From Escherichia coli (GTDB taxonomy: Bacteria; Pseudomonadota; Gammaproteobacteria; Enterobacterales; Enterobacteriaceae), in assembly GCF_044324785.1 (NCBI RefSeq), contig NZ_CP172127.1: a stretch of 64,000 bases of DNA; one strand, given 5' to 3'. The notes beneath the pieces are model-generated. The model searched no databases. It saw only the letters and a program-made list of their open reading frames with translations, and was not told the DNA's origin. The position numbers were made by a program, and so were the translations under genes. Shown here piece by piece: positions 47,391-64,000 of this stretch (positions are counted from its first letter, which is position 1; the number at the start of each line of letters is the position of its first letter).

Positions 47391-47652
47391 TAGTAGAAAT
47401 ATTTAAACCAGTGTAGGTTCAGGGATACGCCACAGCAAGAAATAGTTTACTTATTCCTCATTTTGTCTACTTAAAATTGACATTGAGAAAAAAATACAAA
47501 CTTACCTACATTCAGGCAAAGTGCGACAAATAGACTCGGTCGGTTTAAAGAGAACGTGTAACATAGATGCAAATCGAATAGACATTGTTGCCAGCCGTTC
47601 CAAGGTTGTGGGGCGCTGCATGGCCTGAGACGTGATAAATACAGGGAACACA

Positions 47653-50600
47653 ATGAAATTCACTGAAGATACCCGAGTAAAAATCCCCGTCATCCTCCAC
47701 CTGATACGGCTGGGCTACCACTACCTGTCCCTTAAAGAACAACGCTGGGACAAAGAAACCAATATCTTCCCTGACCTCTTCACCGCTGCGATTGGCAGAA
47801 TAAATCCCGGACTTGTGCCAGACGACATCGGACGCCTGTTAAAAGACCTCACGCTGCTTCTCGACAACGATGATCTGGGCCGCGCCTTCTTCGAAAAACT
47901 CAGTGACCGTTCCGGTATCAAACTGATCGACTTTGATAACTTCAACAACAACAGTTTCCATGTCGTCACCGAACTGACCTGCGAAAACGGTGATGAAGAA
48001 TTCCGCCCGGACATCACGCTGCTGATCAACGGCATGCCGCTAATCTTTATCGAAGTGAAAAAACCCAACAATCGGGAAGGCATCGTCGCAGAACGCAACC
48101 GCATCAACGAACGCTTTAAAAACCCCAAATTCAAACGCTTCGCCAACATCACCCAGTTCATGATCTTCTCCAATAACATGGAGTATGACGACAGCGACCC
48201 GGAGCCGATTCAAGGGGCATTCTACGCCAGCAGCTCTTACAGCAACCCGGTATTCAACTACTTCCGCGAAGAAGAACTCTTCAACCTGACCAACTTACTG
48301 AAACCGCTGTCAGAAGAAACCGAAATCGCCGTCCTGAAAGACAACAACCTGGAAGTGATCCGCACCAACCCGGAATTTCAGACCAACAAAGATCACAACC
48401 GCCCGACAAACCGCCTCTGCACCGCGCTGTTGAGCCGGGATCGGCTGGCATTTATCCTGCGCTATGCGCTGGTGTATGTAGCCGAACCGGGCGGCATCCA
48501 AAAACACATCATGCGCTACCCGCAGCTCTTCGCCACCAAAGCGATTGAGCGCAAACTGAACGCTGGCGTGAAAAAAGGCATTATCTGGCACACCCAGGGC
48601 AGTGGGAAAACCGCATTGGCATACTACAACGTGCGCTTCCTGACAGATTACTTCCAGAATCAGCAGGTGATCCCGAAATTCTACTTTATTGTCGATCGTC
48701 TTGATCTGCTCCAGCAGGCGCAGCGTGAATTCACCGCCCGTGGCTTAATCGTTCACCTTATCGACTCCCGCGAAGCCTTCACCCGCGATATCAAAGCGAC
48801 GCAGGCGCTGCACAACCACCACGGCAAAGCGGAAATCACCGTCGTCAACATCCAGAAATTCCGCGATGACCCGGATGTCGTCACCACCAAAGACTACGAC
48901 ATCAACATCCAACGCGTGTACTTCCTCGATGAAGTCCACCGCAGCTACAACCCCAAAGGGAGCTTCCTGGCGAATTTAAGCCAGTCGGACACCAACGCCA
49001 TCAAAATTGGCCTGACCGGTACGCCTCTGCTGGGCACAGACTACAACTCCCGCGACCTCTTCGGCGACTACATCCACAAATACTACTACAACGCCTCCAT
49101 TGCCGACGGCTACACGCTGCGCCTGATCCGTGAAGAGATCGCCACCAACTACCGGATGATCCTGCAACAGGCGCTAAAAGACGTAGAAGTCAGAATGGGC
49201 GATGTGGATCGCAAAGACATCTACGCCCATCCCAGTTTCGTCAAACCGATGCTGAACTACATCGTCACCGACTTTGCCAAAAGCCGGGGCGCACTGAATG
49301 ATGACACCATCGGCGGCATGGTGATTTGCGACAGCTCAGAACAGGCCAAGCAGATGTTTGAGATATTCAACACTGACTACGCCGAATCGCCCACCGCTGC
49401 CGATGACGTCGCCGAAGAAATGCCGGTATTACAGGCCGCAGAGCCTGCCGCCGTTTACCAGATCCACGCCAAAGAAACGCGGAAAATCAAACGCGCCGCC
49501 CTGATCCTGCACGACGTCGGCAGCAAGCAGGAGCGCAAAGAATGGGTGGATCAATTCAAAGCGGGCGAGATTGACCTGCTGTTCGTCTACAACATGTTGC
49601 TCACGGGCTTTGACGCCAAACGGCTAAAAAAACTCTACCTCGGGCGGGTGATCAGAAAGCACAACCTGCTCCAGGCGCTGACCCGCGTCAACCGAACCTA
49701 CAACCACTTCCGCTACGGCTATGTGGTGGACTTCGCCGACATCCGCCAGGAATTTGACGCCACCAACAAAGCCTACTTCGAAGAGCTACAGGCTGAACTG
49801 GGCGATGAAATGGAGCATTACTCCCGCCTGTTCAAATCAGCGGATGAGATTCGCGAAGAAATCGAACATATCAAAGACGTTCTGTTTAGCTTCGATACCG
49901 AAAACGCGGAAATCTTCACTGACCAGATAAACCAGATCCATGACCGGGAAACCGCGCTGGTACTGAAAAACGCGCTGGCCGACGCCCGCAGCCTGTACAA
50001 CCTGATTCGCCTCCAGGGCAACACTGAGTTTCTCCAGGCGCTGGATTTCAACAAACTCAACATCCTTTACCGCGAAGCCAGCCGCCGCCTCGACTTACTC
50101 AACCTGAAGGCGGATCTGGAACAGGGTGTTGACCTCTCCGGCCTGCTGAACCGGGCGCTGGAAGAGGTGATCTTTGAATTCCACAAAGTGGGCGAAGAAG
50201 AGCTGGTACTGGCCGACGAGCTGAAAGAGACGCTGCGCCGCACCCGCGAAGCGCTGGCCGCCAACTTCGACCAGCAGGACCCGCAGTTCGTCAGCCTGAA
50301 AGACGAACTGGAGCGTCTGTTTAAGAAAAAGAAACTCAGCGAAGTCACCCAGCAAGAAATGGTTGCGAATATCGGCACACTCAATAAAATTCATGGCCGC
50401 ATCAAAGAGCTAAACCGCCAAAATAACCTGCTGCGCCAGAAATACCGTGGCGACGTGAAATACGCGCGTACCCACAAACGCCTGCGCGAGCGCGGCGGCC
50501 TGAGCGAGCCGGAGCGTAAAATCTTCGAAGCACTGCTTGGCGTTAAGCTGGATGCGGATGAAAAAGTGCTGAATAACAGCCAGATACTGAACAACGAAAG

Positions 50601-50751
50601 CTATTTTGAGCGGCAGATTGTGTCATGTGTACTCGATCACTTTGAACAACAGCAGCACATCACCCTGAGTGCGAAAGCGGCTGGCGACATCAACCGCCTG
50701 ATTGTGGCGGAATACCTGAACGAATTTAATACCGGAGCACGTACGTGGTAG
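47653..50751 (+). CDS. hsdR: type I restriction enzyme R subunit HsdR
   Basis: N-terminal PD-(D/E)xK nuclease motif (RPDITLLINGMPLIFIEVKK), and helicase motifs GSGKT and DEVH. Start at ATG 47653 (MKFTEDT). Confidence 0.9.
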   Translation: MKFTEDTRVKIPVILHLIRLGYHYLSLKEQRWDKETNIFPDLFTAAIGRINPGLVPDDIGRLLKDLTLLLDNDDLGRAFFEKLSDRSGIKLIDFDNFNNNSFHVVTELTCENGDEEFRPDITLLINGMPLIFIEVKKPNNREGIVAERNRINERFKNPKFKRFANITQFMIFSNNMEYDDSDPEPIQGAFYASSSYSNPVFNYFREEELFNLTNLLKPLSEETEIAVLKDNNLEVIRTNPEFQTNKDHNRPTNRLCTALLSRDRLAFILRYALVYVAEPGGIQKHIMRYPQLFATKAIERKLNAGVKKGIIWHTQGSGKTALAYYNVRFLTDYFQNQQVIPKFYFIVDRLDLLQQAQREFTARGLIVHLIDSREAFTRDIKATQALHNHHGKAEITVVNIQKFRDDPDVVTTKDYDINIQRVYFLDEVHRSYNPKGSFLANLSQSDTNAIKIGLTGTPLLGTDYNSRDLFGDYIHKYYYNASIADGYTLRLIREEIATNYRMILQQALKDVEVRMGDVDRKDIYAHPSFVKPMLNYIVTDFAKSRGALNDDTIGGMVICDSSEQAKQMFEIFNTDYAESPTAADDVAEEMPVLQAAEPAAVYQIHAKETRKIKRAALILHDVGSKQERKEWVDQFKAGEIDLLFVYNMLLTGFDAKRLKKLYLGRVIRKHNLLQALTRVNRTYNHFRYGYVVDFADIRQEFDATNKAYFEELQAELGDEMEHYSRLFKSADEIREEIEHIKDVLFSFDTENAEIFTDQINQIHDRETALVLKNALADARSLYNLIRLQGNTEFLQALDFNKLNILYREASRRLDLLNLKADLEQGVDLSGLLNRALEEVIFEFHKVGEEELVLADELKETLRRTREALAANFDQQDPQFVSLKDELERLFKKKKLSEVTQQEMVANIGTLNKIHGRIKELNRQNNLLRQKYRGDVKYARTHKRLRERGGLSEPERKIFEALLGVKLDADEKVLNNSQILNNESYFERQIVSCVLDHFEQQQHITLSAKAAGDINRLIVAEYLNEFNTGARTW

Positions 50752-50909
50752 AACTGTAATTTAGAGATAAAACCAAAACCCTGATCGACAGCCTGAAAAG
50801 CATCTGTGCGAACTACGGCCTGGGCAACGACGGTAACGAATTCAAAATTATCACTCAGGCATTCCTGTACAAATTCCTGAACGACAAATTCGCCTTTGAA
50901 GCCAAAAAG

Positions 50910-52382
50910 GTGGATAAAAGCATCGCCAGCGCCGAAAAATGGGAAGTCGCGCTCAATCAGATGAGCGAAGAACAGCGGGATAAACTGCAACTGAAGATGA
51001 GCGCCGACACTGCGCGTCTGAAGCCGCATCACTTCATTCAGTATTTATACAACCGTCAAAATGAGGCCAATTTCGCCACCACCTTTGACGACACCCTGAT
51101 GGACATCGCCGCCACCAACAACGACGTCTTCGCGGTCAAAACTGACGGCGGCGCGAAAGTGGTGCTGTTTGAGCGCCTCAGCCAGTACATCGCCGACGAA
51201 TCAAGGCGCGACGACTTCTGCCGCGCCATTATCAACAAACTGGCCGATTTCAGCTTCGAGCGCATCTTCACGCAGAAATTCGACTTCTACGCCACTATCT
51301 TTGAATACCTGATCAAAGACTACAACAGCAACTCCGGCGGCAAATACGCGGAATACTATACGCCCCACGCCGTGGCGCGCATCATGGCGGAAATCCTGGT
51401 GCCGAAAGCACAACAGGGCGTAGTGCGCAACGTAAGCTGTTACGACCCGTCCGCCGGTTCCGGCACCTTACTGATGAACGTGGCGCACGCCATCGGGGAA
51501 GATCGTTGCAGCATCTTCGCGCAGGACATCTCGCAGAAATCCTCCAGCCTGCTGCGCCTGAACCTGATCCTCAACAATCTGGTGCATTCGATCCCCAACG
51601 TGATTCAGGGCAACACCATTCTGCACCCGTTCCACAAGGACGGCAGCGCGCTGAAACGCTTTGACTATATCGTCTCTAACCCGCCGTTTAAGATGGATTT
51701 CAGCGATTTCCGCGACGATTTGGATAGCAAGGAAAACCAGCAACGTTTCTTTGCCGGGATACCAAAAATCAAAGCCAAAGCCAGGGACAAAATGGAAATT
51801 TACCAGTTGTTCCTGCAACACATCATTTTCTCGCTGAAACCGGATGGTAAGGCGGCGGTCGTGGTGCCGACCGGGTTTATCACCGCGCAGTCGGGCATTG
51901 ATAAAGGGATTCGCGAACATCTGGTGAAAAACAAGATGCTGGCGGGTGTGGTTTCCATGCCGTCGAATATCTTCGCCACCACCGGCACTAACGTATCGAT
52001 CCTGTTTATTGACGCCAGCAACAAAGAGAAAGTGGTGCTGATCGACGCCTCGAATTTAGGTGAAAAGGTCAAAGACGGCAAAAACCAGAAAACGGTGCTG
52101 ACCGAAGAAGAAGAGCAGCGCATCTGCGAAGTGTTCAACAACAAGTGGAGCGAAGAGGATTTCTCGGTGGTGGTCAGCTATGACGAGATCGCCGGGAAAA
52201 ATTACTCGTTCAGCGCCGGGCAGTATTTCGATGTGAAAATTGAATACACCGATATGACGCCGGAACAGTTTGCCGCGAAGATGAACGGGTTTACGGAGAA
52301 TCTGGAGAGTTTGTTTAGCCAGTCGCGCGAGCTGGAGGTGGAGATTAAAAAGCAGATGGCGGGGCTGAATTTCCATGGTTAA
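50910..52382 (+). CDS. hsdM: type I R-M methyltransferase subunit HsdM (start codon problematic, see findings)
   Basis: AdoMet motif DPSAGSGTLL and catalytic NPPF. The reading frame is open and HsdM-N-like from 50760, but the first canonical start is GTG 50910. Confidence 0.8.
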   Translation: MDKSIASAEKWEVALNQMSEEQRDKLQLKMSADTARLKPHHFIQYLYNRQNEANFATTFDDTLMDIAATNNDVFAVKTDGGAKVVLFERLSQYIADESRRDDFCRAIINKLADFSFERIFTQKFDFYATIFEYLIKDYNSNSGGKYAEYYTPHAVARIMAEILVPKAQQGVVRNVSCYDPSAGSGTLLMNVAHAIGEDRCSIFAQDISQKSSSLLRLNLILNNLVHSIPNVIQGNTILHPFHKDGSALKRFDYIVSNPPFKMDFSDFRDDLDSKENQQRFFAGIPKIKAKARDKMEIYQLFLQHIIFSLKPDGKAAVVVPTGFITAQSGIDKGIREHLVKNKMLAGVVSMPSNIFATTGTNVSILFIDASNKEKVVLIDASNLGEKVKDGKNQKTVLTEEEEQRICEVFNNKWSEEDFSVVVSYDEIAGKNYSFSAGQYFDVKIEYTDMTPEQFAAKMNGFTENLESLFSQSRELEVEIKKQMAGLNFHG

Positions 52383-53493
52383 AACTATTGGTGATGCTTG
52401 TAATATTAGTACAGGTAAACTTGATGCAAACCAGGCTGTAAAAGGTGGTGATTATCCGTTTTTTACGTGCGCAGAGTTCCCTGAACAAATCGATCATTAT
52501 GCATTTGACGGCGATGTGGTTCTTATTGCTGGCAATAATGCAAGAGGAAACTTTCACGTAAGCAGGTATCAAGGGAAATTTAATGCTTACCAGCGAACCT
52601 ATGTGCTTACAGCCAAACATGGTTATGATATTGATTATATTTACTATGCCTTAAGACTTGAATTAAAGCGATTGCGAGAAAAATCTCAAGGCTCGCAAAC
52701 AAAGTTTCTGACAATGCCGATTTTGACCAGTATATCGCTAGGAAACCTAGTCGAGACTGAACAATCGACAGTTTCAAGAGTATTAAAAATACTGGATAAA
52801 AAAATCGCTCTCAACAATCGTATCAACGCCGAGCTGGAAGCGATGGCGAAAACACTGTATGACTACTGGTTTGTACAGTTTGATTTCCCTGATGCCAACG
52901 GAAAACCGTATAAAACCTCCGGCGGGAAGATGGTGTACAACGCCACGCTGAAACGGGAAATTCCGGCGGGGTGGAATATTAAAAATCTTGGCGATATAGC
53001 GGAACTATATCAGCCTAAGACCATTTCAGGTAACGATTTTATTGATGATGGTGAATATCTTGTATATGGAGCCAACGGTATTGTAGGAAGATTCAATAAA
53101 TATAACCATGAAGAACCTGTCGTTACAATCACCTGCCGTGGAAATACGTGCGGCAATATAAACGTCACACGACCATATTCATGGATTACAGGGAATGCAA
53201 TGGTGGTTAAGCCAAAGTTTAACTATATTTCACCTTATTATATTTATAATTTATTGTCGATATCGGAAGTTGATAAAGTCATTACTGGCTCTGCTCAACC
53301 TCAAATTACGCGAGCAAACCTAGCTCCACTTAAGGTTGTTGAACCAGCAGAGGACATTACGCAAAAATACTCAAAGTCTGTTGATGCTTTTTTTAAAAAG
53401 CATATCTCAATATTAGATGAAAATGATAATTTATTAAAACTCCGCGACTGGCTCCTCCCCCTGCTTATGAACGGACAGGTCACGGTCAAATAA
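52375..53493 (+). CDS. hsdS: type I R-M specificity subunit HsdS (two target-recognition domains)
   Basis: Its ATG overlaps the hsdM stop. It has two low-GC TRDs separated by the conserved spacer LDKKIALNNRINAELEAMAKTLYDYWFVQFDFP, and a conserved C-terminal LRDWLLPLLMNGQV. Confidence 0.85.
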   Translation: MVKTIGDACNISTGKLDANQAVKGGDYPFFTCAEFPEQIDHYAFDGDVVLIAGNNARGNFHVSRYQGKFNAYQRTYVLTAKHGYDIDYIYYALRLELKRLREKSQGSQTKFLTMPILTSISLGNLVETEQSTVSRVLKILDKKIALNNRINAELEAMAKTLYDYWFVQFDFPDANGKPYKTSGGKMVYNATLKREIPAGWNIKNLGDIAELYQPKTISGNDFIDDGEYLVYGANGIVGRFNKYNHEEPVVTITCRGNTCGNINVTRPYSWITGNAMVVKPKFNYISPYYIYNLLSISEVDKVITGSAQPQITRANLAPLKVVEPAEDITQKYSKSVDAFFKKHISILDENDNLLKLRDWLLPLLMNGQVTVK

Positions 53494-53835: not shown

Positions 53836-54306
53836 ATGGCTACAATCCTCACCCCTGACTGCGATTTACTCGATCTGTTATCCGTTCCCTTCAATGCCAC
53901 CACGGATTTTACTGTCCTTGCCGATTACTGCACCCGCTTCGCCGAAACCCTGATAGAAACCGACGATCCCGCGCTGCGGCTGGCGCTGAGCGGACGGCTT
54001 CACGCGGCTCTTGCGCTACTGCAACCCACACTGCATGACCCCATCCCGCCGCATCTTACCGAAAGCCTGACCGTTAATACCCTTCCCGCCACACCAGAGC
54101 ACTTTATTTCCGAACCCGATTCCTTGTGCGAATACTGCCTCGCACTGCTCCAGCTTCTGCTGGAACGCCCGGCGGAGCCAAAAATGGAGCAAACCCTGAC
54201 CGGGCTGCTGTGTGAGCTGGTCTGGAATTTCACGGAAGGACTCAAATCCCCGCGCTGGCTGCGTACCGCCGACGGCGTAAAATTTATCAGTGAGGTGGCC
54301 GCATGA
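53836..54306 (+). CDS. hypothetical acidic Leu-rich protein, 156 aa, no recognisable domain
   Basis: ATG with a good SD. It starts [15 protein letters not shown]... No TM segment or signal peptide. Its stop overlaps the start of the next (broken) gene. Confidence 0.6.
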
Positions 54307-54449
54307 TGCAACAGGACTGGCATTCCACCGACATTATCGCCACGCTGAAAAAGCGGGGAACGTCTCTGGCGGCGCAGAGAAAAACTCATTGCGGACGCGC
54401 TGTAAATATCGTCAGAAATCATCTGGCCTTCAAGGTACTTTGATAGCAA
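54303..54449 (+). pseudogene. Ner/Nlp-like small DNA-binding protein, internally deleted and interrupted
   Basis: The N-terminus [24 protein letters not shown] resembles Ner/Nlp. The characteristic C-terminus (S)EI(I)WPSRYF appears only in another frame, after a stop. Confidence 0.55.
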
Positions 54450-54451
54450 AG

Positions 54452-54655
54452 GCAAGCAGGCTGGTTCAGTCCCGTGTTTCTCTTCTTGCATTTTCAGAAA
54501 TGGGAGGCTGGGAGTCTATCGAAATGGTTCGTCGATATGCTCACCTCGCACCTAATCACCTTACCGAACACGCACGGCAAATAGACTCGATCCTGAACCC
54601 ATCGGTCCCAAATTTGTCCCAGTCAAAAAATAAGGAAGGTACTAATGATGTGTAA
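54452..54655 (+). pseudogene. C-terminal ~67 codons of a lambdoid (P22-type) tyrosine integrase
   Basis: [37 protein letters not shown] contains the catalytic-Tyr box (RYAHL). There is no N-terminal or core domain upstream. It ends 14 nt before the att core. Confidence 0.75.
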
Positions 54656-55044: not shown

Positions 55045-55716
55045 ATGGTGATTGATGCAATGTTAAGCGTTCAGATGACTCCACAAGCAAAAGTTAGCTT
55101 CGAGGAGCAATGTTTTTTTCATGCTTCATGTCTTGTTGTTGCCCCAATAAATGTTGGAGCATTCTCCTACTTTGGCGCTAATTGTATGCTCGGCGGCTTT
55201 ACGATGGGTAGATTTTGTTCAGTTGCTCCAGGAGTAAAAATTGGCCTTGGCGAGCATGAAACTGGGTATTTTTCTACGCATCCTTTTTTCTTTGGCTCAA
55301 AAAATGGTTTTAAAATCCCTGATGGTATAGGAATGCAACGCGACCTCTCTCAACAGAAGCATGGTATACCAAGAATTGGTCATGACGTATGGATAGGTGC
55401 AAATGCGGTTATCAGGCGAGGTATAACTATTGGTACTGGCGCTGTTATTGCTGCTGGCGCTATTGTCACCAAAAATGTCGATCCATATTCAATCGTAGGT
55501 GGCGTTTCTGCAAAACACCTAGGGTACAGATTTGAGGAATCAATCATCAAAGAGTTACTGGATAGCCAATGGTGGGAATATGATTTAAGCTCATTTATTG
55601 GGATTGATACAAGGACACCGACGACTTTTTTAGAGCAGTTTAATGCTGTAAAAGATAAAAAGAAGGCATCTTATAAGAGATTTACAATTCTTCCATCCGG
55701 TGAAATTGTTGAATAG
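55045..55716 (+). CDS. XAT-class hexapeptide-repeat acetyltransferase (CatB/Vat-like)
   Basis: [66 protein letters not shown] and the C-terminal [11 protein letters not shown] fit the xenobiotic acetyltransferase pattern. The start codon is uncertain (weak SD). Confidence 0.75.
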
Positions 55717-55735: not shown

Positions 55736-58105
55736 TTAAATAAACATAAGAATAAACATCAGAAGTTCTTCGTATCTGATACCATACTGATAGCCAGCAG
55801 GTTTAATAATAACCTGCCTTCCTGTGTAATATTCCTCGTCGTACCACTCTCCTGTTTCATTGTTTTTAACACTCCTAATCAATACCTCTGGAGCATAAAT
55901 ATCATCCCATTCATCATAACACCAGAACGCATAGTTATTAGGGTCAAGACCGTATTTTCTGAGAATATTACCTACAGTTTGTGCACCAACGCCGAAATGA
56001 ATCCGAGCGCCATCACTCTTGATCTTTACTGCATCTTTAAATTTAAACCTCCAGATATTTTCCTTTATTTCAAGCGCAGCAAGACGCTCTGATTCTGTTG
56101 TTTTCTCGTCAGCCTCAATACGCAATTTCAGCTCTTCATTCGACGTGTTGATACTGCCAGTACCAGCGTATACCTGTGACCATCGAAATGCTGATGTTCC
56201 GTTTGAGTTAACATTATCAACAGTTGGTTTTATAAGGCCAGAAAAATGAGTTTCAGGTGTATTAATATATGTATATGCACCTGCTGTACTACGAGTCCTT
56301 AACTCAAAGCTGTCTATATCAACACCAGTCCTACGAATTATAAGGAAGTTATTTCCTGCGGAACCAGTATCGGTTTGAGTGCTAACAGACAATCCGTTTC
56401 GTGTATCAATACGTATATTCTTCCCGTTCTCCAGCGAAGCAGAATTATGTAGATACAGCGAGTTGTCAGTGTAGAGATTGTGTTTACCTACATTGCTAAA
56501 TGTATAAGTATTGCTTGTGTTATCACTGTTCCTATGGAATTGCTGAAGAGTGTAGGCAGAAGATGCTCCGTATCCATCACAATGGAAATTTCTGCACAGC
56601 TGCAAATCGAATAACAATACGGTGTCAGCATTAATGCTCACATTATTAAAGCATGTTGCAAAGTTGGCACCATACTGTGAATTGGAATCGCCAATCTGTG
56701 CGCACACATCAAGCAAACCAAAAGTTACATTGGTAAAGTTATTTGCATCACCGGCGTCAAGAACAATCCCTTTCTTAGTCCCTGAATACCCTCTGGCAGT
56801 GCCGATCTCAACTCCCTGGAATGAACACACGCGAGCACGACTAAGCTTAAGACCAACCCATTCCAGACCATGATCGTAACCTTTTGCTGCGCGGTGAATA
56901 AACATACCATTCATGATGAGAAGGAATCTGTTATCAAGCCGTACTGGTTCAAGTTGGGCATTAATACCAACATTTGTGCATATACATTCACCATAAGCAT
57001 AACGATTCGTTTCAAATATACGATCATCAGCGTCGTAAATGCCTCGTAATGCCTTGGCGGCATCAATATTAAGCAATGTAAAATATGTCTTCTGCTTAAT
57101 TTCAAAAAAATTTGCAACATTATGCGTTGTGATATCACTCACACGCATTGATAAAATCCCCTCTTCTGGAGCGGTGCGAATGAATCCATCAAGGAACTGT
57201 TCATTATAACTTTTGGCTATCTGATAACATCCAACAGCATCAATGCGTTCGATTGTGAACTGCCAACTATCACCACAGTTAAAAGACCATCTCCAGCCGT
57301 ATTTCTGAGCGAATTCATCATATTCAACATTTGCAGGTTCAGAACAGAAAGATAAAAATCTAAATGTTGGTTTTGGCCTTAGATGGTTAATCCCGGAACC
57401 TCTTGGGGTATATATGGCATTATCTCCATTCCCACCTTTTGTTTTAACTGTAAGGTGACTTAAACCAAATTCAATATCATATTTAGTTGGTGCGGCGAAA
57501 ACAAAGCCGTCTTTTGGTGATGTGGTATTGTCAAACACAATAACCGTTTCACCCTGCCCATCACCGCACATATTTACTGGTGGTATATTAACGGGGCCAG
57601 TCAAACTATATGTTCCAGTTGGCACATATAGTTTTCCACCCTCTCCAATAGCATTTGCCGCTGCAATAAATGCCGCCGTATCATCGTTAACACCGTCACC
57701 TTTCGCCCCATAATGCTGTGGCGTAATTAACAGCATACGGTCAGAAAAAATCTCTGTCCTAAGTTGATCAGGATCGTATTTTAATACATTTGGAAAATAA
57801 AACTGCTGAGTGCCATATGCATCATATACAGCCATAGAATGGCCTTGCACGGTAACGAATTTGGCAATCTGTCCGTTATATACCGGATAACCAGCAGCGT
57901 TAATAATGATTGGTTGAGAAACAGGAACGTGAGAACCGTCTTCGTTCTCTACATAAACCGGAATCTGGTTTTCAGGATTTACCGGGTCAGTGTCAATTTT
58001 ACCGATATAAATTTTTCCATTAGCATTTGCTTTAAACGAGCGAGCTAAAGTGAATAACTGACTTGGTTGTGAAACAACAACATTGGCATTTATTGAATCT
58101 GTCAT
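55736..58105 (-). CDS. tailspike: P22 gp9-type head-binding domain + pectate-lyase-like beta-helix depolymerase + C-terminal intramolecular chaperone (peptidase S74-like) domain
   Basis: The N-terminus [18 protein letters not shown]...[26 protein letters not shown]...[13 protein letters not shown] is nearly the P22 gp9 N-domain. [19 protein letters not shown] is a beta-helix signature. The C-terminal part has NTSNEELK (Ser-x4-Lys) and a chaperone-like tail. Confidence 0.9.
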
Positions 58106-58204: not shown

Positions 58205-59083
58205 TCAGTAGTTATGTACTGAAGGAGGTAATTCTTTATTCTTAAGTCTCATCCATGCGGAAATATTCGTTGGTCCGTCTGGCTCATTAATATCAACATC
58301 TCGTGTGTGATTGATTAAAACGTCTCTCGCCATTCCGATAACATACGAGAATTCATGACCGTAGTCGTAGCATCTGCCGGAATAGTTCGATTGAATTTGT
58401 TTCAGCGCCGGATACAGTTCGCGGAATAATGCCTGTGAGCGGTTGGCATAATCCCATAACCATACAAGGCTGTTTGCTTCTTTTGCAGAAAGCTCGTTGG
58501 TTTTCTTCTCTTGTTTGCCAATGAACTCACCTTCAAGCACTACCCTGTGGATGTACTCTACGGCCAGCGGGATTTGTTCAATTGAAAGTTCATCAATGCT
58601 GTCAATACCAAAACGCTGATGAACCATATTGTATGCATCGTCATAGCGAAGTCCTTTCTTTCCTACCAGCATGTTTACTGCATCGCGTAGCGGTGTTCTT
58701 TCCTCAACAGTGGTTTTCTTTCCTTTTACATACTCGCCATGTTTGCGAATTGAAGGCAGAACTTCTGCTGTTACCCACTTGCGGAATTTGTGCGGGACTG
58801 AACCTTTATTGACTGCATCGCGGCAGCGCAGAACCAATGTATACATACCTGATTCGCTCACAATGCTTAGATTCTGCTCACCACCAAGGGTGTAACTTAA
58901 AGTTACTCCCTTTTCATCGTCATCAAGTGCAGTAAGCGCCTTGCGTGAGTTAGTCAAATCTAAAGCATCACAAACATCTTTAGCTACAAACCACGGCTCA
59001 CCGCACTTGTTGATGACGCGGATTTCACTGTCGCCGAATTTGAAGATGGTGAAATCGTTTTGTGCCTTTGCTATACTTTTCAT
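58205..59083 (-). CDS. ant: antirepressor Ant (Bro-N + KilA-C type)
   Basis: [28 protein letters not shown]...[11 protein letters not shown] is a Bro-N domain. It is immediately downstream of arc, as in P22 immI. Confidence 0.9.
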
Positions 59084-59151
59084 GTCAATATTTCCTAATC
59101 CGATTTGTTGATGCCGAAGCCCTGACTGTTACAGCAGTTGGGGCTTCAACT
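59084..59151 (+). ncRNA. possible sar-type antisense RNA covering the arc-ant intercistronic region
   Basis: The 68-nt arc-ant spacer is the size recalled for P22 sar RNA. It contains a hairpin, gaagccc...gggcttc. Promoter and ends were not verified. Confidence 0.3.
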
Positions 59152-59403: not shown

Positions 59404-59658
59404 ATGGCTAGAGATGATCCGCACTTTAACTTCCGTATGCCTTTGGAAGTAAGAGAAAAATTGAAATTAAGAGCCGAGGCTAACGGAAGGTCAATGAACT
59501 CTGAGTTATTACAAATCGTTCAGGATGCACTATCAAAACCATCACCGATTACAGGATATCGCGACGAAGCTGAACGCTTGGCTGATCAGCAGGCTGAGCA
59601 GTTCAAGGCTATAGTGTTTGAGACACTTAAAAAGATTTATGAAAAGGATTTGAAATGA
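59404..59658 (+). CDS. mnt: Mnt repressor
   Basis: MARDDPHFNFRMPLEVREKLKLRAEANGRSMNSELLQIVQDAL... is a ribbon-helix-helix protein close to P22 Mnt. It is divergent from arc. Confidence 0.95.
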   Translation: MARDDPHFNFRMPLEVREKLKLRAEANGRSMNSELLQIVQDALSKPSPITGYRDEAERLADQQAEQFKAIVFETLKKIYEKDLK

Positions 59659-59709
59659 GATTTCTATCACTGTTCTTGTTAGCAGTTGTCTCTTCTTCCA
59701 GTGCTGAGC

Positions 59710-60766
59710 GGCTTTGTTGAATAAATCGAACTTTTGCTGAGTTGAAGGATCAGATCACGTATCTTCCCGACAACGCAGACCGTTCCGTGGCAAAGCAAAA
59801 GTTCAAAATCACCAACTGGCCCACCTACAATAAAGCCCTCATCAACCGTGGCTCCATAACTTTCTGGCTGGATGATGAAGCTATTCAGGCCTGGTATGAG
59901 TCAGCAACACCTTCTTCACGAGGCAGACCTCAGCGCTATTCTGACCTTGCCATCACTACTGTGCTGGTCATTAAACGCGTATTCAGGCTGACCCTGCGGG
60001 CTGCGCAGGGCTTTATTGATTCCATTTTTTCTCTGATGAACGTTCCGCTACGCTGCCCGGATTACAGCTGTGTCAGCAGGCGGGCAAAGTCGGTTAATGT
60101 CAGTTTCAAAACGCCCACCCGGGGTGAAATCGCACACCTGGTAATTGATTCCACCGGGCTGAAGGTCTTCGGTGAAGGCGAGTGGAAAGTCAAAAAGCAT
60201 GGCCAGGAACGCCGCCGTATCTGGCGTAAGCTGCATCTCGCCGTTGACAGTAAAACACATGAAATCATCTGCGCTGACCTGTCGCTGAACAACGTTACGG
60301 ACTCAGAGGCCTTCCCCGGGTTAATCCGGCAAACCCACCGGAAAATCAGGTCAGCCGCCGCCGATGGCGCTTACGATACCCGGCTATGTCACGATGAACT
60401 GCGGCGTAAGAAAATCAGCGCGCTTATCCCTCCCCGAAAAGGTGCGGGTTACTGGCCCGGTGAATATGCAGACCGTAACCGTGCAGTGGCTAATCAGCGA
60501 ATGACCGGGAGTAATGCGCGGTGGAAATGGACAACAGATTACAACCGTCGCTCGATAGCGGAAACGGCGATGTACCGGGTAAAACAGCTGTTCGGGGGTT
60601 CACTGACGCTGCGTGACTACGATGGTCAGGTTGCGGAGGCTATGGCCCTGGTACGAGCGCTGAACAAAATGACGAAAGCAGGTATGCCTGAAAGCGTGCG
60701 TATTGCCTGAAAACACAACCCGCTACGGGGGAGACTTACCCGAAATCTGATTTATTCAACAAAGCC
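59710..60766 (+). mobile_element. IS903/IS102-type insertion sequence (IS5 family), 1057 bp
   Basis: Perfect 18-bp terminal inverted repeats GGCTTTGTTGAATAAATC, flanked by a 9-bp direct duplication GTGCTGAGC (59701-59709 and 60767-60775). Confidence 0.95.
59787..60710 (+). CDS. IS903-type transposase (DDE)
   Basis: A GTG start giving (M)AKQKFKITNWPTYNKALINRGS yields 307 aa, as recalled for IS903 Tnp. The track ORF begins 15 codons earlier at TTG. Confidence 0.9.
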   Translation: MAKQKFKITNWPTYNKALINRGSITFWLDDEAIQAWYESATPSSRGRPQRYSDLAITTVLVIKRVFRLTLRAAQGFIDSIFSLMNVPLRCPDYSCVSRRAKSVNVSFKTPTRGEIAHLVIDSTGLKVFGEGEWKVKKHGQERRRIWRKLHLAVDSKTHEIICADLSLNNVTDSEAFPGLIRQTHRKIRSAAADGAYDTRLCHDELRRKKISALIPPRKGAGYWPGEYADRNRAVANQRMTGSNARWKWTTDYNRRSIAETAMYRVKQLFGGSLTLRDYDGQVAEAMALVRALNKMTKAGMPESVRIA

Positions 60767-61071
60767 GTGCTGAGCTGCGCGAGCTTCAAACGGGTAATGA
60801 CCTTCTTTACAACATTCAACAAGGTAAAAAGGGTGATGATTTTTCATCGCTTTACATTACTGGATATTTGCGCGGAGTAACTGACTCATTGATACTAATT
60901 GGTTCTCTATGTCCTCCTGATGGCGTTGACATGTATCAATACACCGATATCGTTGAGAAATCTCTAAACAAAAACCCAGAATCAAGAAATGAGAGTGCAG
61001 TTATACTAACCGCCCTAGCAGTAGGAAAAACATTTCCGTGCAAAAAGAATCAATAACAATAAGGGCTTAAA

Positions 61072-61461
61072 ATGAAATTGATTATAGCAATGGCTTTCCT
61101 TGTCTTCTCGTTTTCTGTCTCAGCAGAGTGCTGGGTCGTTGGAGATATGCACGGAATAAGCTATTCAGAACGAAATAATTTTCAACCGGAAGAAGATGGT
61201 TTTAGTGGAACATTCATCATTAAGACAAACGGTGAAGATGCCAGTATCACATATTCTGGGACGGATGCGGGCGGCATGGCTTACAAAGCATTGTCTAAAA
61301 ACTCCATCCTAGGAATTGGCGCGAATGGAGAAACTCAACGCGTTATAGACTCATGGGTAATACATCCTACTGGAACAGTTTTAATGTCAAAAACCATTTC
61401 CGGTTATGGAAATATGGATTCAACCAAAGCTTTTGTTGGAAAAGTAAAAAGAAAATGTTAA
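61072..61461 (+). CDS. hypothetical secreted protein, 129 aa
   Basis: Signal peptide MKLIIAMAFLVFSFSVSA. Same strand as, and 15 nt downstream of, the interrupted gene. No recognisable domain. Confidence 0.6.
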   Translation: MKLIIAMAFLVFSFSVSAECWVVGDMHGISYSERNNFQPEEDGFSGTFIIKTNGEDASITYSGTDAGGMAYKALSKNSILGIGANGETQRVIDSWVIHPTGTVLMSKTISGYGNMDSTKAFVGKVKRKC

Positions 61462-61482
61462 CGATAGGATTATGGCCCTACA

Positions 61483-61668
61483 TCAACAGCTTCCGCGTCC
61501 CTGAGTAATTCTGTTGCGGATTTGCTTCTTGCGGTGGTTTAAGCTGGAGAGCTTGGCTTCTGCTTCTGATATTTGCGCATCAAGATCTTTAAGCTCAAGA
61601 TCTGAAAGTCGCTGGTCAAGCAGGGTTTGGTTCAACTCAATATTGTTCAGACGTTCTTCTATGGTCAT
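61483..61668 (-). CDS. hypothetical 61-aa coiled-coil protein
   Basis: ATG 61668 lies 8 nt after AGGA. It encodes MTIEERLNNIELNQTLLDQRLSDLELKDLDAQISEAEAKLSSLNHRKKQIRNRI, which has heptad character. Confidence 0.45.
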   Translation of the reverse strand: MTIEERLNNIELNQTLLDQRLSDLELKDLDAQISEAEAKLSSLNHRKKQIRNRITQGRGSC

Positions 61669-61699
61669 AACTTTCATCCTATAACTATTTGGAATCAAA

Positions 61700-61882
61700 A
61701 TGAAAAATATATTAATTGGTTTCGTTTTTGGTGCAGCCTGCGCTGCCAGCATTAGCGTTATCGCCGCCCAGATTGTTGGTGGTAACTCATATCTAATGGG
61801 CTATGACGTCATGATAGATGGAGAGGTTGTTTGCTCAGACCCTTATGTATGGACGTCGACAAAAGAAATAGAATGTGACTAA
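61700..61882 (+). CDS. hypothetical 60-aa protein with an N-terminal signal/anchor and conserved-looking Cys pair
   Basis: [23 protein letters not shown]... followed by a terminator. Weak SD. Confidence 0.45.
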
Positions 61883-61883
61883 T

Positions 61884-61908
61884 ACCAGCCTGATGGCTGG
61901 TTAATTTT
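61884..61908 (+). terminator. rho-independent terminator
   Basis: accagcc-tgat-ggctggt followed by taattttt. Confidence 0.7.
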
Positions 61909-61992
61909 TGCATTTACCTGGGCCATATTGACTACTTATAAAATGAGATCAATATTTAATCGCCCAATAACGGGTGTATGTTGAGGTATATC

Positions 61993-62172
61993 ATGGCGAA
62001 AAAACCAGGTGAAAATACAGGGAAAAACGGCGGAATATACCAGGAAGTTGGTCCACGCGGTGGTAAGAAGGACAATTTTGCCACCGTCAGGGACAACGAA
62101 AGACTTCCGCCAACAACAAAGCCAGGTCATGGCTGGGTATTGGATAAGCGAACTCCAGACAGCAAAAAGTAA
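61993..62172 (+). CDS. YjzC-like small protein (59 aa)
   Basis: MAKKPGENTGKNGGIYQEVGPRGG...LPPTTKPGHGW fits the YjzC-family pattern as recalled. GAGG SD lies 6 nt upstream. Confidence 0.6.
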   Translation: MAKKPGENTGKNGGIYQEVGPRGGKKDNFATVRDNERLPPTTKPGHGWVLDKRTPDSKK

Positions 62173-62177
62173 TAATC

Positions 62178-62200
62178 AAGCCGGGTCACTCCGGCTTTTT
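62178..62200. terminator. hairpin terminator shared by the convergent genes
   Basis: aagccgg-gtcact-ccggctt followed by ttt. It overlaps the last codons of the minus-strand gene. Confidence 0.6.
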
Positions 62201-62551
62201 GATATGTCGCTCGCAGAACTCAACAAGCCTGCTCATTAAGTAGCAGTAAGTCTCGTTGGCTCTTCCTGGTTCAACATCAACACCTACCCTTGAGCAGATA
62301 TCGAATGCCATGTGAGCGCACTCATGGGCAATAGTAGATAGTTTGCCATTGAACACGCCTATCACATGCAAAACACCATTCTCGCTACTCATTGTATGAG
62401 ACGCTCCGTTGGCGTCCGAGTCATGCACGTCAACGCCAAGTTTTTGATGCAGGCGTTGCCATTCTGGAAAGTCTCTACAAAACACAATGGTACCGCTCTC
62501 AAAGAGCGGTACGAGCATCTTTGGTACGTTTCCAATGTTAACTTTTTTCAT
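62186..62551 (-). CDS. small HExxH protein (121 aa), possible minimal ImmA/IrrE-like metallopeptidase
   Basis: TIAHECAHMAFD...EPGRANETYCYL: an HExxH motif plus a downstream E/AN segment reminiscent of COG2856 proteins. The family assignment is tentative. Confidence 0.55.
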   Translation of the reverse strand: MKKVNIGNVPKMLVPLFESGTIVFCRDFPEWQRLHQKLGVDVHDSDANGASHTMSSENGVLHVIGVFNGKLSTIAHECAHMAFDICSRVGVDVEPGRANETYCYLMSRLVEFCERHIKKPE

Positions 62552-62581
62552 GGTATCCTGCGCAAAACTAAGGAGGTTGGT

Positions 62582-62770
62582 GTGAAGAAAAAATTTGTAA
62601 ACGTTGCAAAGTGCGCAATTTTTATATTTTTTATGACCTTTTACGGATTTAGTGCCGGAGAAGGTTTCGATCGTGATGCCAATGCATTCAGTTTCTTTTG
62701 TCTGTCTATAGTGGTCATAATTGTATGGGTGGAATTAAAGCAAACATTGTTTCATGTGCTAGGGAAATAA
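62582..62770 (+). CDS. hypothetical 62-aa two-TM membrane peptide
   Basis: GTG 62582 lies 5 nt after AGGAGG. It encodes (M)KKKFVNVAKCAIFIFFMTFYGF...FSFFCLSIVVIIVWV. It is divergent from the HExxH gene, with 30 nt between the starts. Confidence 0.5.
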   Translation: MKKKFVNVAKCAIFIFFMTFYGFSAGEGFDRDANAFSFFCLSIVVIIVWVELKQTLFHVLGK

Positions 62771-62787
62771 CCATCCATGGCATTTAG

Positions 62788-63999
62788 TCACTGCTGTGTT
62801 GCCTCAGTGGCAAGCAGCGGTCTGATGGCATTCGCAGCGTTATTCAGCGCTCTTTCATAGGCTGGTGTTCCAGCTTTAGTGTTTGCCAGACGTAAGAGAG
62901 CATTCCTTGCTGCTTTGGACTCATACAAGCGCATGATTGCACCGAAACCAGCCTCAAGTCCCAGTGATACACCAAGGGTTGCAGTTGCGCCAATCGTTCT
63001 AATCCTGTTAGCTTGCGATTGTCCTGTCTGTGTTACTACATTTGCGGCGTCCGACCTTGCTGTTTGCTGTAGAACTTCATGAAGAGCATCAAGCTCTTTC
63101 ATGTGTCTCCCACTGAATATCGTGTTATAGATCTGACCGTCAGATTGCGACTTCAACTTATTTAACTCGGTAAGAAATTTTGTTGGCGAGTCTCCTGCTT
63201 TTTCTGCAATCTTGCTGATATAAGCAGCACGCATAGCGTTCTTTCCATCTTCACTAAGAGCTGGCCATATCCTCTTAATATCTGATGGTTTTCTGCTGAA
63301 TACAACGCTGTTTATTAGCTCTGGAGTAAACTCTTTTTTAGCTTTGTTGAGATTATTCGCAATCCTTTTATTAAGAACCTTATTGAAGACGTTGGAGTAG
63401 TCAGAGTTTGCTTTGACGTATCTGGCGGCCTCTCCAGCCCCCAAATACCGCGCTGCGTTATTCCTCAAATCCGCCCCCATTGCCCTCTCCACGGCATCAG
63501 TTGCGGCTTTCGCGCTATTAGGAAAAACCATGGCATCTCCCTGAATACTTTCCCTCAAGGCTGACCGCAACTCTCTCAATAGACCAAAATCTATATCTGG
63601 TTTAGCAAGTTCTTCTCGCAAATCGGATAACCCGCGAATCAAATCCTTATTTGCCACTTTCCCAAGCCTATTAGCTCTGGTAAGTACGTTGTCGATAACC
63701 TTAATAGATTTTGATGTGTCAACTGGTGTGTCTCCCATTTTGGCTGTAATGTCTTCAATAACGCTTCCGGCCGAATCCTTCCTTGACTTCAGAGAGCCAT
63801 ACAGATCGTCAACAACAACTGATGGGCTATATTCACCATATTTCTCAAGCTGTTTTTTAACTAGCTGACTTCTTTTTGCATACTGCTCAGCTCGCTTTGA
63901 GCCTGTTCCCAGCAAAGCCCCCTCAGCATCCTGAGTAAGACCACGAGTGAAAGCATTTTTCGGCGGGATTACATCAGATGTCATTGGTGTCACGCCCAT
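62788..63999 (-). CDS. phage DNA-ejection (injection) protein, gp16-position homolog; start at or near the window edge
   Basis: 403-aa Ala/Lys-rich ORF on the same strand as the tailspike, occupying the position of the last ejection gene in P22-like genomes. The start could be ATG 63999, ATG 63984, or outside the window. Confidence 0.6.
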
Positions 64000-64000
64000 C

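Follow-up and report, generated by a model that had tools for sequence, protein, structure and literature searches.

Small accessory genes beside gene 16 of a P22-like Escherichia coli prophage: a mosaic within the ant moron

Introduction

Phages related to P22 (Lederbergvirus) carry a variable region between the homologues of gene 16 and gene 9, within the late operon, which Villafane et al. (2008) named the ant moron (PMC2629481). It comprises the immI elements mnt, arc, sar and ant and/or variable genes that have no part in morphogenesis, and the ten types found in sixteen genomes indicate rapid flux (PMC2629481). Here we analyse one such region from an Escherichia coli genome (RefSeq assembly GCF_044324785.1, contig NZ_CP172127.1). 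It is located at the right end of a stretch of 64,000 nucleotides, referred to below as the window, and includes six small open reading frames (ORFs), g1 to g6, between a gene 16 homologue and immI.

P22 itself carries sieA in this place, beside orf59a and an hkcC ORF, and the latter two are P22 genes of unknown function (PMC2629481). SieA proteins, of which types A, B and C are distinguished (PMC10883804), are responsible for exclusion, and no more than 22 of 66 P22-like phages possess sieA (PMC10883804, Leavitt et al. 2024). A construct composed of sieA, the 85 bp upstream, which include the putative promoter PsieA, and 22 bp downstream sufficed for exclusion, and the mutations which escape SieA are located in C-terminal portions of gp16 and of gp20 (PMC10883804). 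In a second phage of the group, HK620, the corresponding genes are hkcB, hkcC and hkcD.

The original prediction for this DNA, made from the letters alone, treated the six ORFs as an accessory group filling the sieA slot and as the most likely place in the prophage for an undescribed defence or exclusion function. We find that the region is an ordinary new combination of genes in a known and published hotspot, that a single gene of the six stands where sieA stands in P22, and that a defence role is no better supported than a role in interbacterial immunity or in phage development.

Results and Discussion

The sieA position

Positions 61884-62584 of the window align with both P22 and HK620 at 96.3% identity over 704 alignment columns. 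In the P22-pbi and HK620 annotations this block holds orf59a (hkcD in HK620), hkcC, a bidirectional terminator and PsieA. The product of orf59a is 97% identical to those of P22 orf59a and HK620 hkcD, and HkcC is 99% identical to the annotated HK620 protein and to the product of an ORF which is present yet unannotated in P22-pbi. PsieA is identical at 31 of 31 positions to the promoter annotated in P22-pbi, and 83 of the 85 bp upstream of P22 sieA are conserved in the window. The right junction is sharp: divergence from P22 sets in directly after the shared ribosome-binding site (RBS) and GTG start codon, GGAGGTTGGTGTG, beyond which P22 continues into sieA, HK620 into hkcB and the window into g6. 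The left junction falls in the stem of a terminator, which follows mnt in P22 and HK620 and g3 in the window.

Since similarity ends right after the shared start codon, the alignment places g6 alone in the sieA position; orf59a and hkcC accompany sieA as conserved neighbours and do not replace it. The idea of a six-gene unit substituting for sieA is thus not upheld, since P22 has two of these genes beside sieA, and the description "in the sieA slot" holds for g6 only: orf59a, hkcC and PsieA are common to P22 and HK620 at 96% nucleotide identity. The window therefore shares with the P22 segment sieA-hkcC-orf59a-mnt and the HK620 segment hkcB-hkcC-hkcD the same DNA for orf59a, hkcC, the terminator, PsieA, the RBS and the GTG, and differs in what stands behind PsieA: sieA (164 amino acids, multiple transmembrane segments) or hkcB (109 amino acids, a transmembrane segment and a coiled coil) in the phages, and a 62-amino-acid hairpin with two predicted transmembrane segments here. 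It also carries three to four extra genes between mnt and orf59a (Table 1).

Table 1. Features of the right end of the window, in order of position
Feature	Position	Strand	Remarks
Tailspike homologue (P22 gene 9)	55736-58105	-	
Antirepressor gene ant	58205-59083	-	Bro-N and P22_AR_C domains; Pfam match to Ant
sar antisense RNA	59085-59151	+	Rfam RF00262, 65.6 bits, intact
arc	between sar and mnt		Pfam match
mnt, Arc/Mnt-family maintenance repressor	59404-59658	+	Pfam Arc E 3.7e-28; Repressor_Mnt E 1.3e-11
Rap1a/Tai-family gene, 5' part	59655-59709	+	start overlaps mnt stop (ATGA)
IS903B-type (IS5 family) element	59710-60766	+	1057 bp; perfect 18-bp terminal inverted repeats
Rap1a/Tai-family gene, 3' part	60776-61056	+	
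g1	61072-61461	+	129 amino acids; phrog_2651
g2	61483-61668	-	61-amino-acid form; phrog_7586
g3	61700-61882	+	60 amino acids; phrog_37095
Intrinsic terminator after g3	61884-61901	+	z -5.3; position equivalent to HK620 tMNT
g4 (orf59a)	61993-62172	+	59 amino acids; phrog_3202
Bidirectional terminator (P22 't mnt', HK620 'tORF59A')	62178-62197	.	z -2.7; overlaps last hkcC codons
g5 (hkcC)	62186-62551	-	121 amino acids; phrog_1365
PsieA promoter	62521-62551	+	inside hkcC 5' end, opposite strand
g6	62582-62770	+	62 amino acids; phrog_21338
Gene 16 homologue, 3' part (ejection / DNA transfer protein)	62788-64000	-	convergent with g6; exits window

A mosaic of modules

Other prophages contain the same genes in other combinations between mnt and gene 16. 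WCHEC050613 carries an intact mnt-Rap1a-g1-g2-g3 run followed by different genes; ETEC1747 has Rap1a, g1, g2, orf59a, hkcC and hkcB; CH4794 has a different gene after mnt and then g2 to g6; SWYH.B349aT combines g2 and g3 with an hkcB-sized gene. In STEC384 a ClpP-like gene and a gene for a 139-amino-acid protein precede a g1 which directly abuts gene 16, and phiv205-1 holds g6 and none of the other five. All six genes occur together in ET479, in a single piece of 1,678 bp at 97.3% identity, and this is the only one of 5,426 complete E. coli genomes to share the six-gene run. Any part of g1-g3 is found in 249 of these genomes and at least 80% of the block in 11 only, while the orf59a/hkcC block is matched in 130, of which 112 carry at least 80% of it.

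The genes assort separately in other prophages, and the interval is a mosaic of four independently mobile modules and not a single cassette. In its likeness to the ant moron (PMC2629481) the interval has the same position, includes mnt, arc, sar and ant with variable small genes, shows the same mosaic junctions and bears an insertion sequence (IS); it differs in the combination of genes: of the complete E. coli genomes, ET479 alone shares the six-gene run and none shares the IS insertion. The exact combination (Rap1a::IS903B, g1, g2, g3, orf59a, hkcC, g6) was not found in the literature or in the collections searched. As it stands the finding carries limited weight, as one more combination in a hotspot known to be in flux, all of whose genes are catalogued in PHROGs.

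A proposed organisation

The account that we lean towards, with modest confidence, treats the interval as the gene-16-proximal half of an ant moron of four modules, read by two interleaved expression programmes, in which lysogen-expressed cargo would guard the envelope and HkcC and g2 would be expressed late. The first module consists of additions to the mnt unit, namely a periplasmic immunity gene of the Rap1a/Tai family, killed by the IS, and g1, encoding a predicted periplasmic beta-barrel. The second is a divergent pair, g2 for a coiled coil in late-operon orientation and g3 for a putative small secreted disulfide peptide. The third, whose DNA is that of P22 and HK620, is the convergent pair orf59a/hkcC with its shared bidirectional terminator. 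The fourth is g6, joined to PsieA, RBS and GTG in place of sieA or hkcB.

On the transcription map of P22 the alternating orientation of the genes can be read as these two programmes, one lysogen-expressed on the plus strand and the other late-expressed on the minus strand. In P22, mnt and sieA are expressed by the prophage, and the plus-strand genes share their orientation. Pmnt, PsieA and perhaps a further promoter in front of orf59a would thus drive mnt, Rap1a, g1, g3, orf59a and g6 in the lysogen. Four of the five plus-strand accessory genes (all but orf59a) have predicted exported or membrane products, which could serve as lysogenic-conversion factors guarding the envelope: Rap1a would neutralise incoming type VI secretion system (T6SS) amidases of the Tae4 type, g1 and g3 would bind an agent active in the periplasm, and g6 would reside in the inner membrane, the site at which SieA obstructs the DNA conduit of gp16 and gp20, with a possible action against DNA delivery. 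The minus-strand genes g2 and hkcC would be expressed in lytic growth by read-through of the late operon, and HkcC, on this view a small zinc metallopeptidase, would be active and tied in function to orf59a. The P22 late operon reads through the gene 16-gene 9 region to the tailspike (PMC2629481), and it is from this knowledge of P22 and from gene orientation that we infer late read-through into g2 and hkcC. Insertion of the IS has inactivated Rap1a and would probably lower the expression of g1 and g3 from Pmnt.

Several points weigh against this organisation. The late read-through is itself one of them. Promoters are assigned by homology to P22 only, and a scan for promoters found 7 against 6.0 expected by chance. 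If a moron is strictly a gene or group with its own promoter and terminator, the interval offers two good terminators and a conserved PsieA, its other promoters being consensus matches at chance level. The fold of g1 is a generic barrel which gives no functional pointer, the sequence-level match of Rap1a to solved Tai4 is insignificant (E 1.7), and similarity of g6 to SieA is undetectable (BLASTP E 0.28; no phrog_7745 match). None of the six genes has a demonstrated function in any phage.

g6, a predicted membrane hairpin

By hydropathy, the product of g6, which starts with GTG, has two hydrophobic segments and a short GEGFDRD loop between them, and is predicted to be an inner-membrane hairpin protein with two transmembrane segments. 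The gene begins exactly at the start position of sieA in P22 and of hkcB in HK620. It matches phrog_21338 with E 4e-45, and homologues of 62 codons, about 80% identical, occur in Salmonella enterica and, going by the protein name in one source, in Serratia fonticola. The ratio of nonsynonymous to synonymous substitution (dN/dS) is 0.15-0.30; g6 is under purifying selection. It is present at 99% identity or more in 88 of the 5,426 genomes, and RefSeq/PGAP omits it from the annotation of nearly all of them, despite this selection and a strong RBS. A tblastn search of a phage collection returned only phiv205-1, UPF_BP1 and JEP4, with the gene unannotated in all three; 'orf62' of phage L was set aside, phage L being absent from these matches. 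The annotation gap is of interest in its own right, since genome annotation systematically overlooks a gene for a 62-amino-acid membrane protein, although purifying selection acts on it, in precisely the place of action of SieA.

The stop codon of gene 16 is always 17-18 nucleotides from g6. Identical or near-identical copies of g6 are found beside gene 16 homologues which are only about 44% identical to each other or differ in length (329-786 amino acids), and because the same g6 adjoins divergent gene 16 ends in seven loci, a recombination junction lies within the spacer at 62771-62787. Other neighbours vary as well. In Salmonella P22-like prophages (positions 3483-3968 of loci L007-L009) a 161-amino-acid lipoprotein gene (phrog_6067, unknown function) stands behind the PsieA leader and is followed by the g6 homologue, so that this lipoprotein gene is a further alternative occupant of the sieA position. 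In the two loci that carry the variant named from Serratia fonticola, g6 is downstream of mnt-Rap1a.

Like SieA types A, B and C (PMC10883804), g6 stands behind PsieA at the same genomic position and is predicted to be in the inner membrane. It differs from them in having no sequence similarity, in being about one third of their size and in lacking the conserved cytoplasmic motif FxRYPxEAxxFNK. Homology to SieA was rejected on the BLASTP value against the P22 protein given above, g6 belonging to phrog_21338 only and SieA to phrog_7745. The sole local match between the two (62594-62679, g6 residues 11-32 against P22 SieA 132-158) falls on the most conserved motif of SieA, after a transmembrane segment (GE..GF[ND]), and is probably due to chance.

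Could g6 alone be a SieA analogue, expressed from PsieA in the lysogen and blocking delivery of superinfecting P22-like DNA through the gp16/gp20 conduit? We regard this as unlikely, while recognising that an exclusion role is a plausible guess for this predicted membrane peptide encoded behind PsieA and, among the six genes, only for it. The exact positional replacement with a common promoter, RBS and start codon, the two predicted transmembrane segments and the purifying selection all suit such a role, as does the constant place beside the 3' end of gene 16, given that escape from SieA maps to the C-terminal regions of gp16 and gp20 (PMC10883804). On the other side, g6 is unrelated in sequence to the SieA types and lacks FxRYPxEAxxFNK; it is not tied to PsieA, because it lies downstream of the lipoprotein gene in Salmonella or of Rap1a in the Serratia fonticola-named variant; and the association of one g6 with gene 16 types 44% identical argues against a specific gp16 partner.

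hkcC and orf59a

HkcC was modelled with AlphaFold2 (predicted local distance difference test, pLDDT, 89; predicted template modelling score, pTM, 0.83) as a four-stranded sheet, one helix and two long helices. The HExxH residues H76, E77 and H80 are on helix 71-88, and E100, 20 residues past H80, opens helix 100-116. When 1.84 billion cluster representatives were searched with a profile, 514 relatives emerged, mostly of 110-130 amino acids. In the 117 of these used to measure conservation, which are 23-44% identical to HkcC, H76, E77 and E100 are invariant, H80 (at least 90%), G49 and Y104 are nearly so, and Cys78, Cys86 and Cys103 are conserved.

Searches against known peptidases gave faint signals. 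The HExxH-to-Glu segment is covered by weak phmmer matches to neutral protease/thermolysin (E 0.09-0.66), the HkcC profile matches myroilysin weakly in the PDB (E 0.015), and HkcC falls below threshold for all Pfam peptidase models, with three of the 117 relatives touching SprT-like at E 1e-4 or weaker. Foldseek against BFVD retrieved 26 phage proteins at E 1e-3 or better, with template modelling scores up to 0.82; most are unnamed and a few are called SprT-like, Metalloprotease or IrrE. In the predicted model HkcC shows the features of a gluzincin-type zincin, that is HExxH on an active-site helix and a third-ligand Glu on the next helix, and it is a candidate for a minimal zincin-type metallopeptidase. 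It resembles the small stand-alone zincins (SprT-like PF10263, minimal gluzincins) in its HExxH helix after a mixed beta-sheet, its Glu at +20 and its size of about 120 amino acids. The differences are its sub-threshold Pfam matches, the three conserved cysteines and an obligate-looking convergent partner gene of 59 codons.

This partner, orf59a, encodes a Gly/Lys-rich protein which is remotely YjzC-like. The YjzC assignment of the original prediction is borne out only as a sub-threshold match to PF14168 (18.4-18.7 bits against a cut-off of 25), although one of near full length (profile 8-54 of 55), and six of seven diverged homologues also match YjzC below threshold (E 0.001 or weaker). In all six distant contexts where an HkcC homologue 44-63% identical was found (Xenorhabdus, Proteus, Klebsiella oxytoca, Rosenbergiella and two metagenomic contigs), it lies tail-to-tail with an orf59a homologue, 5-30 nucleotides apart; these partners are exactly 59 amino acids long and 61-83% identical to orf59a. 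A terminator hairpin is found at or over the end of hkcC in most of the distant copies, hkcC is always in the sense of the structural operon, and in three contexts (Klebsiella, Rosenbergiella, metagenomic) the pair is inserted between the tail tube/chaperone and tape-measure genes of a siphovirus-type prophage. A scan of GTDB genomes for HkcC yielded 3 loci only, too few to catalogue the genes behind PsieA.

From the conserved tail-to-tail pairing in distant contexts it follows that hkcC and orf59a appear to behave as one module. One reading makes this module the essential point: a self-contained two-component device, for example a protease together with a substrate, an inhibitor or an antisense regulator of it, serving late phage development or counter-defence and not protection of the lysogen. 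The shared hairpin and convergent arrangement in Xenorhabdus, Proteus, Klebsiella, Rosenbergiella and metagenomic phages, the occurrence between tail genes, the constant sense orientation of hkcC and the invariant catalytic residues all speak for it. Set against these, the link comes from comparison alone, some E. coli copies (e.g. H139) have hkcC without orf59a, and the partner evidence is drawn from six contexts in a family of 514 clusters. We hold it to be possible but doubtful.

The same tentative standing applies to a joint proposal, (a) that orf59a/HkcC is a mobile two-gene module and (b) that g6 is a new minimal DNA-injection exclusion protein. Under (a), the lysogen would make the YjzC-like 59-amino-acid protein and the late operon the zinc metallopeptidase, the two being coupled by their shared terminator and convergent transcription; the module would have found its way into structural operons of tailed phages that are not related, both P22-like podoviruses and siphovirus-type prophages; and HkcC might remove or process its lysogen-stage partner, or a host or defence protein, at the lytic switch. 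Under (b), g6, abutting the 3' end of gene 16 and driven here by PsieA, may act on DNA injection. If (a) were true, two P22 genes left blank since the sequencing of immI would acquire a function, and the idea is open to direct P22 genetics. Already as a pointer, the comparison shows that two long-ignored P22 genes form a conserved pair of which one product, in its predicted model, resembles an active mini-metalloprotease. This pair and the unannotated g6 behind PsieA are the most useful leads from the locus.

A Rap1a/Tai gene split by an insertion sequence

The four-module organisation, to which we return here, includes one gene outside the six-gene interval 61072-62770, a seventh gene overlooked in the original prediction. 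The stretch between the ejection genes and immI was correctly recognised there, but its true start is 59658, and it also contains a Rap1a-family gene broken by the IS903B-type element of 1057 bp. The transposase at 59742-60710 has Pfam DDE_Tnp_1_5 and DDE_Tnp_1 matches, matching elements are named IS903B in RefSeq, and a 9-bp target duplication, GTGCTGAGC, is present at 59701-59709 and 60767-60775. The insertion breaks the Rap1a ORF after codon 18, so the gene is inactivated in this prophage. Its start overlaps the mnt stop codon (ATGA), and because of this overlap it would be translationally coupled to mnt.

When 59655-59709 is joined to 60776-61056, with the IS and one copy of the duplication removed, an ORF for a preprotein of 111 amino acids is restored. 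It scores against Pfam PF18602 with E 1e-13 and 52 bits (cut-off 27.7), has a hydrophobic N-terminus corresponding to a signal peptide, and its C-terminal Cys pattern aligns to Tai4. Intact genes which it matches at 98-99% identity occupy this position in E. coli ETEC1747 and in WCHEC050613, and RefSeq names their products 'Rap1a/Tai family immunity protein'. The allele occurs in 25 of the 5,426 complete genomes, with intact copies in the same place, and none of these genomes has an IS inserted at this site. The two loci with the g6 variant named from Serratia fonticola likewise carry a Rap1a-family gene, between mnt (or the tailspike) and g6.

Rap1a/Tai4 proteins (PF18602) neutralise Ssp1/Tae4 peptidoglycan amidases in the periplasm. 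The split gene resembles these T6SS immunity proteins in its PF18602 score, signal peptide and C-terminal Cys pattern, and differs from them in being an orphan within a prophage repressor operon, without an effector nearby, and in being inactivated. Literature searches found no report of orphan T6SS immunity genes in a P22-like maintenance-repressor operon. This neighbour points to interbacterial (T6SS) immunity at least as much as to anti-phage defence. Orphan T6SS immunity genes can travel with P22-like prophages in this operon, and such cargo would link lysogeny to survival in interbacterial warfare and not only to phage exclusion.

The genes g1, g2 and g3

The product of g1 has a signal peptide and then, in a confident predicted model, a soluble beta-barrel of eight strands which Cys20 and Cys129 close; the dN/dS of g1 is about 0.34. 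That of g3 has an N-terminal hydrophobic signal or anchor (by hydropathy) and then a domain of about 35 amino acids with two Cys; it matches phrog_37095 with E 1e-45 and is 97% identical in ET479 and WCHEC050613.

The gene g2, in the orientation of the late operon, encodes a coiled coil with a basic C-terminus. Its match to phrog_7586 (E 1e-43) spans exactly 61 amino acids. In several genomes PGAP annotates instead an extended ORF of 92 amino acids (61483-61752, minus strand) as 'hemolysin XhlA family protein', which overlaps the start of g3 and suppresses its annotation. The XhlA assignment was rejected (Pfam PF10779, E 0.18, 12.5 bits against a cut-off of 34.7) and the name is probably a propagated misannotation.

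The six ORFs as a set

Every one of the six ORFs has a full-length match to a single PHROG family (E 1e-31 to 1e-60), and function is unknown for all six families. Much of the original description is thus borne out: the ORFs are real at their coordinates, sizes and orientations, as judged from the PHROG matches, the ET479 copy and dN/dS; HExxH, a signal peptide or anchor and a pair of transmembrane segments are seen in the respective proteins; several products are predicted envelope proteins by hydropathy and export signals; and the genes form an accessory (moron) region of a P22-like prophage, between gene 16 and immI, where P22 has sieA. A lack of conservation had been named as grounds for abandoning the idea, and what we find is conservation, both in the PHROG families and in other prophages. 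That no function can be assigned also stands, as scans of the six ORFs against Pfam, NCBIfam and PADLOC gave nothing above threshold. In PADLOC-DB v2, five of the six ORFs and Rap1a have no match, and g2 matches only PbeC and JetC through its coiled coil (E 1e-3 to 4e-3), so that no known defence system is recognised beyond this noise. Sequence searches of g1, g5, Rap1a and orf59a against the PDB gave weak matches or none. Literature searches returned no functional study of hkcC, orf59a or prophage-borne Rap1a/orphan T6SS immunity genes, and the text of the P22 RNA-seq papers gives no per-gene values for hkcC or orf59a.

Two further statements hold in part. The genes had been described as bounded by their own terminators. 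Only two terminators are convincing, the one after g3 and the orf59a/hkcC hairpin, and none was found at the g1/g2 or the g6/gene 16 junction. The GC content of the interval (0.423) had been called low, and it is indeed below that of positions 1-50000 (0.50), but not below that of the neighbouring phage genes (tailspike 0.40, ant 0.437, arc-mnt 0.418; range 0.40-0.44).

That the six genes are a single accessory island replacing sieA, and as such an undescribed anti-phage defence or exclusion system, now seems improbable. The location is that of sieA, three products are predicted to be exported or in the membrane, and at least one further E. coli strain has the full set of six together, at 97% identity. 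Two of the six, with the promoter, nevertheless belong to the P22/HK620 backbone and coexist there with sieA; the cassettes assort independently; PADLOC offers nothing but coiled-coil noise at E 1e-3; and the set is not one operon, because its genes are on both strands with terminators between them. Finally, that the ORFs are functionless, decaying remnants or chance ORFs at a degrading prophage end, as the IS-broken gene in the slot, the omission of g6 by PGAP in nearly all genomes and an AT-rich region which favours spurious ORFs might suggest, is very improbable in view of the full-length PHROG matches for all six, dN/dS well under 1 with lengths conserved across genera, confident models for g1 and g5, and HkcC catalytic residues invariant at 23-44% identity.

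The surrounding prophage

A P22-like (Lederbergvirus) prophage occupies the right end of the window with the end of its late operon, and the interval lies, as in the definition of the ant moron, between gene 16 and gene 9 homologues within the late operon, with mnt, arc, sar and ant and the variable non-morphogenetic genes all present. Mnt is 81% identical to the P22 protein, and mnt is the first gene of a rightward, prophage-expressed unit which the accessory genes lengthen. Since sar is intact by its Rfam match, the P22-type ant control circuit appears complete. The gene 16 homologue, labelled 'DNA transfer protein' in matching genomes, has 63% identity to the C-terminal region of P22 gp16.

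No tRNA genes were found between 45000 and 64000. To the left of the tailspike, at 55045-55716, is a hexapeptide-repeat acetyltransferase-like ORF, and 54290-54655 appears to be a C-terminal remnant of a tyrosine integrase. Farther left, hsdR-, hsdM- and hsdS-like ORFs at 47632-53493 make up a complete type I restriction-modification system.

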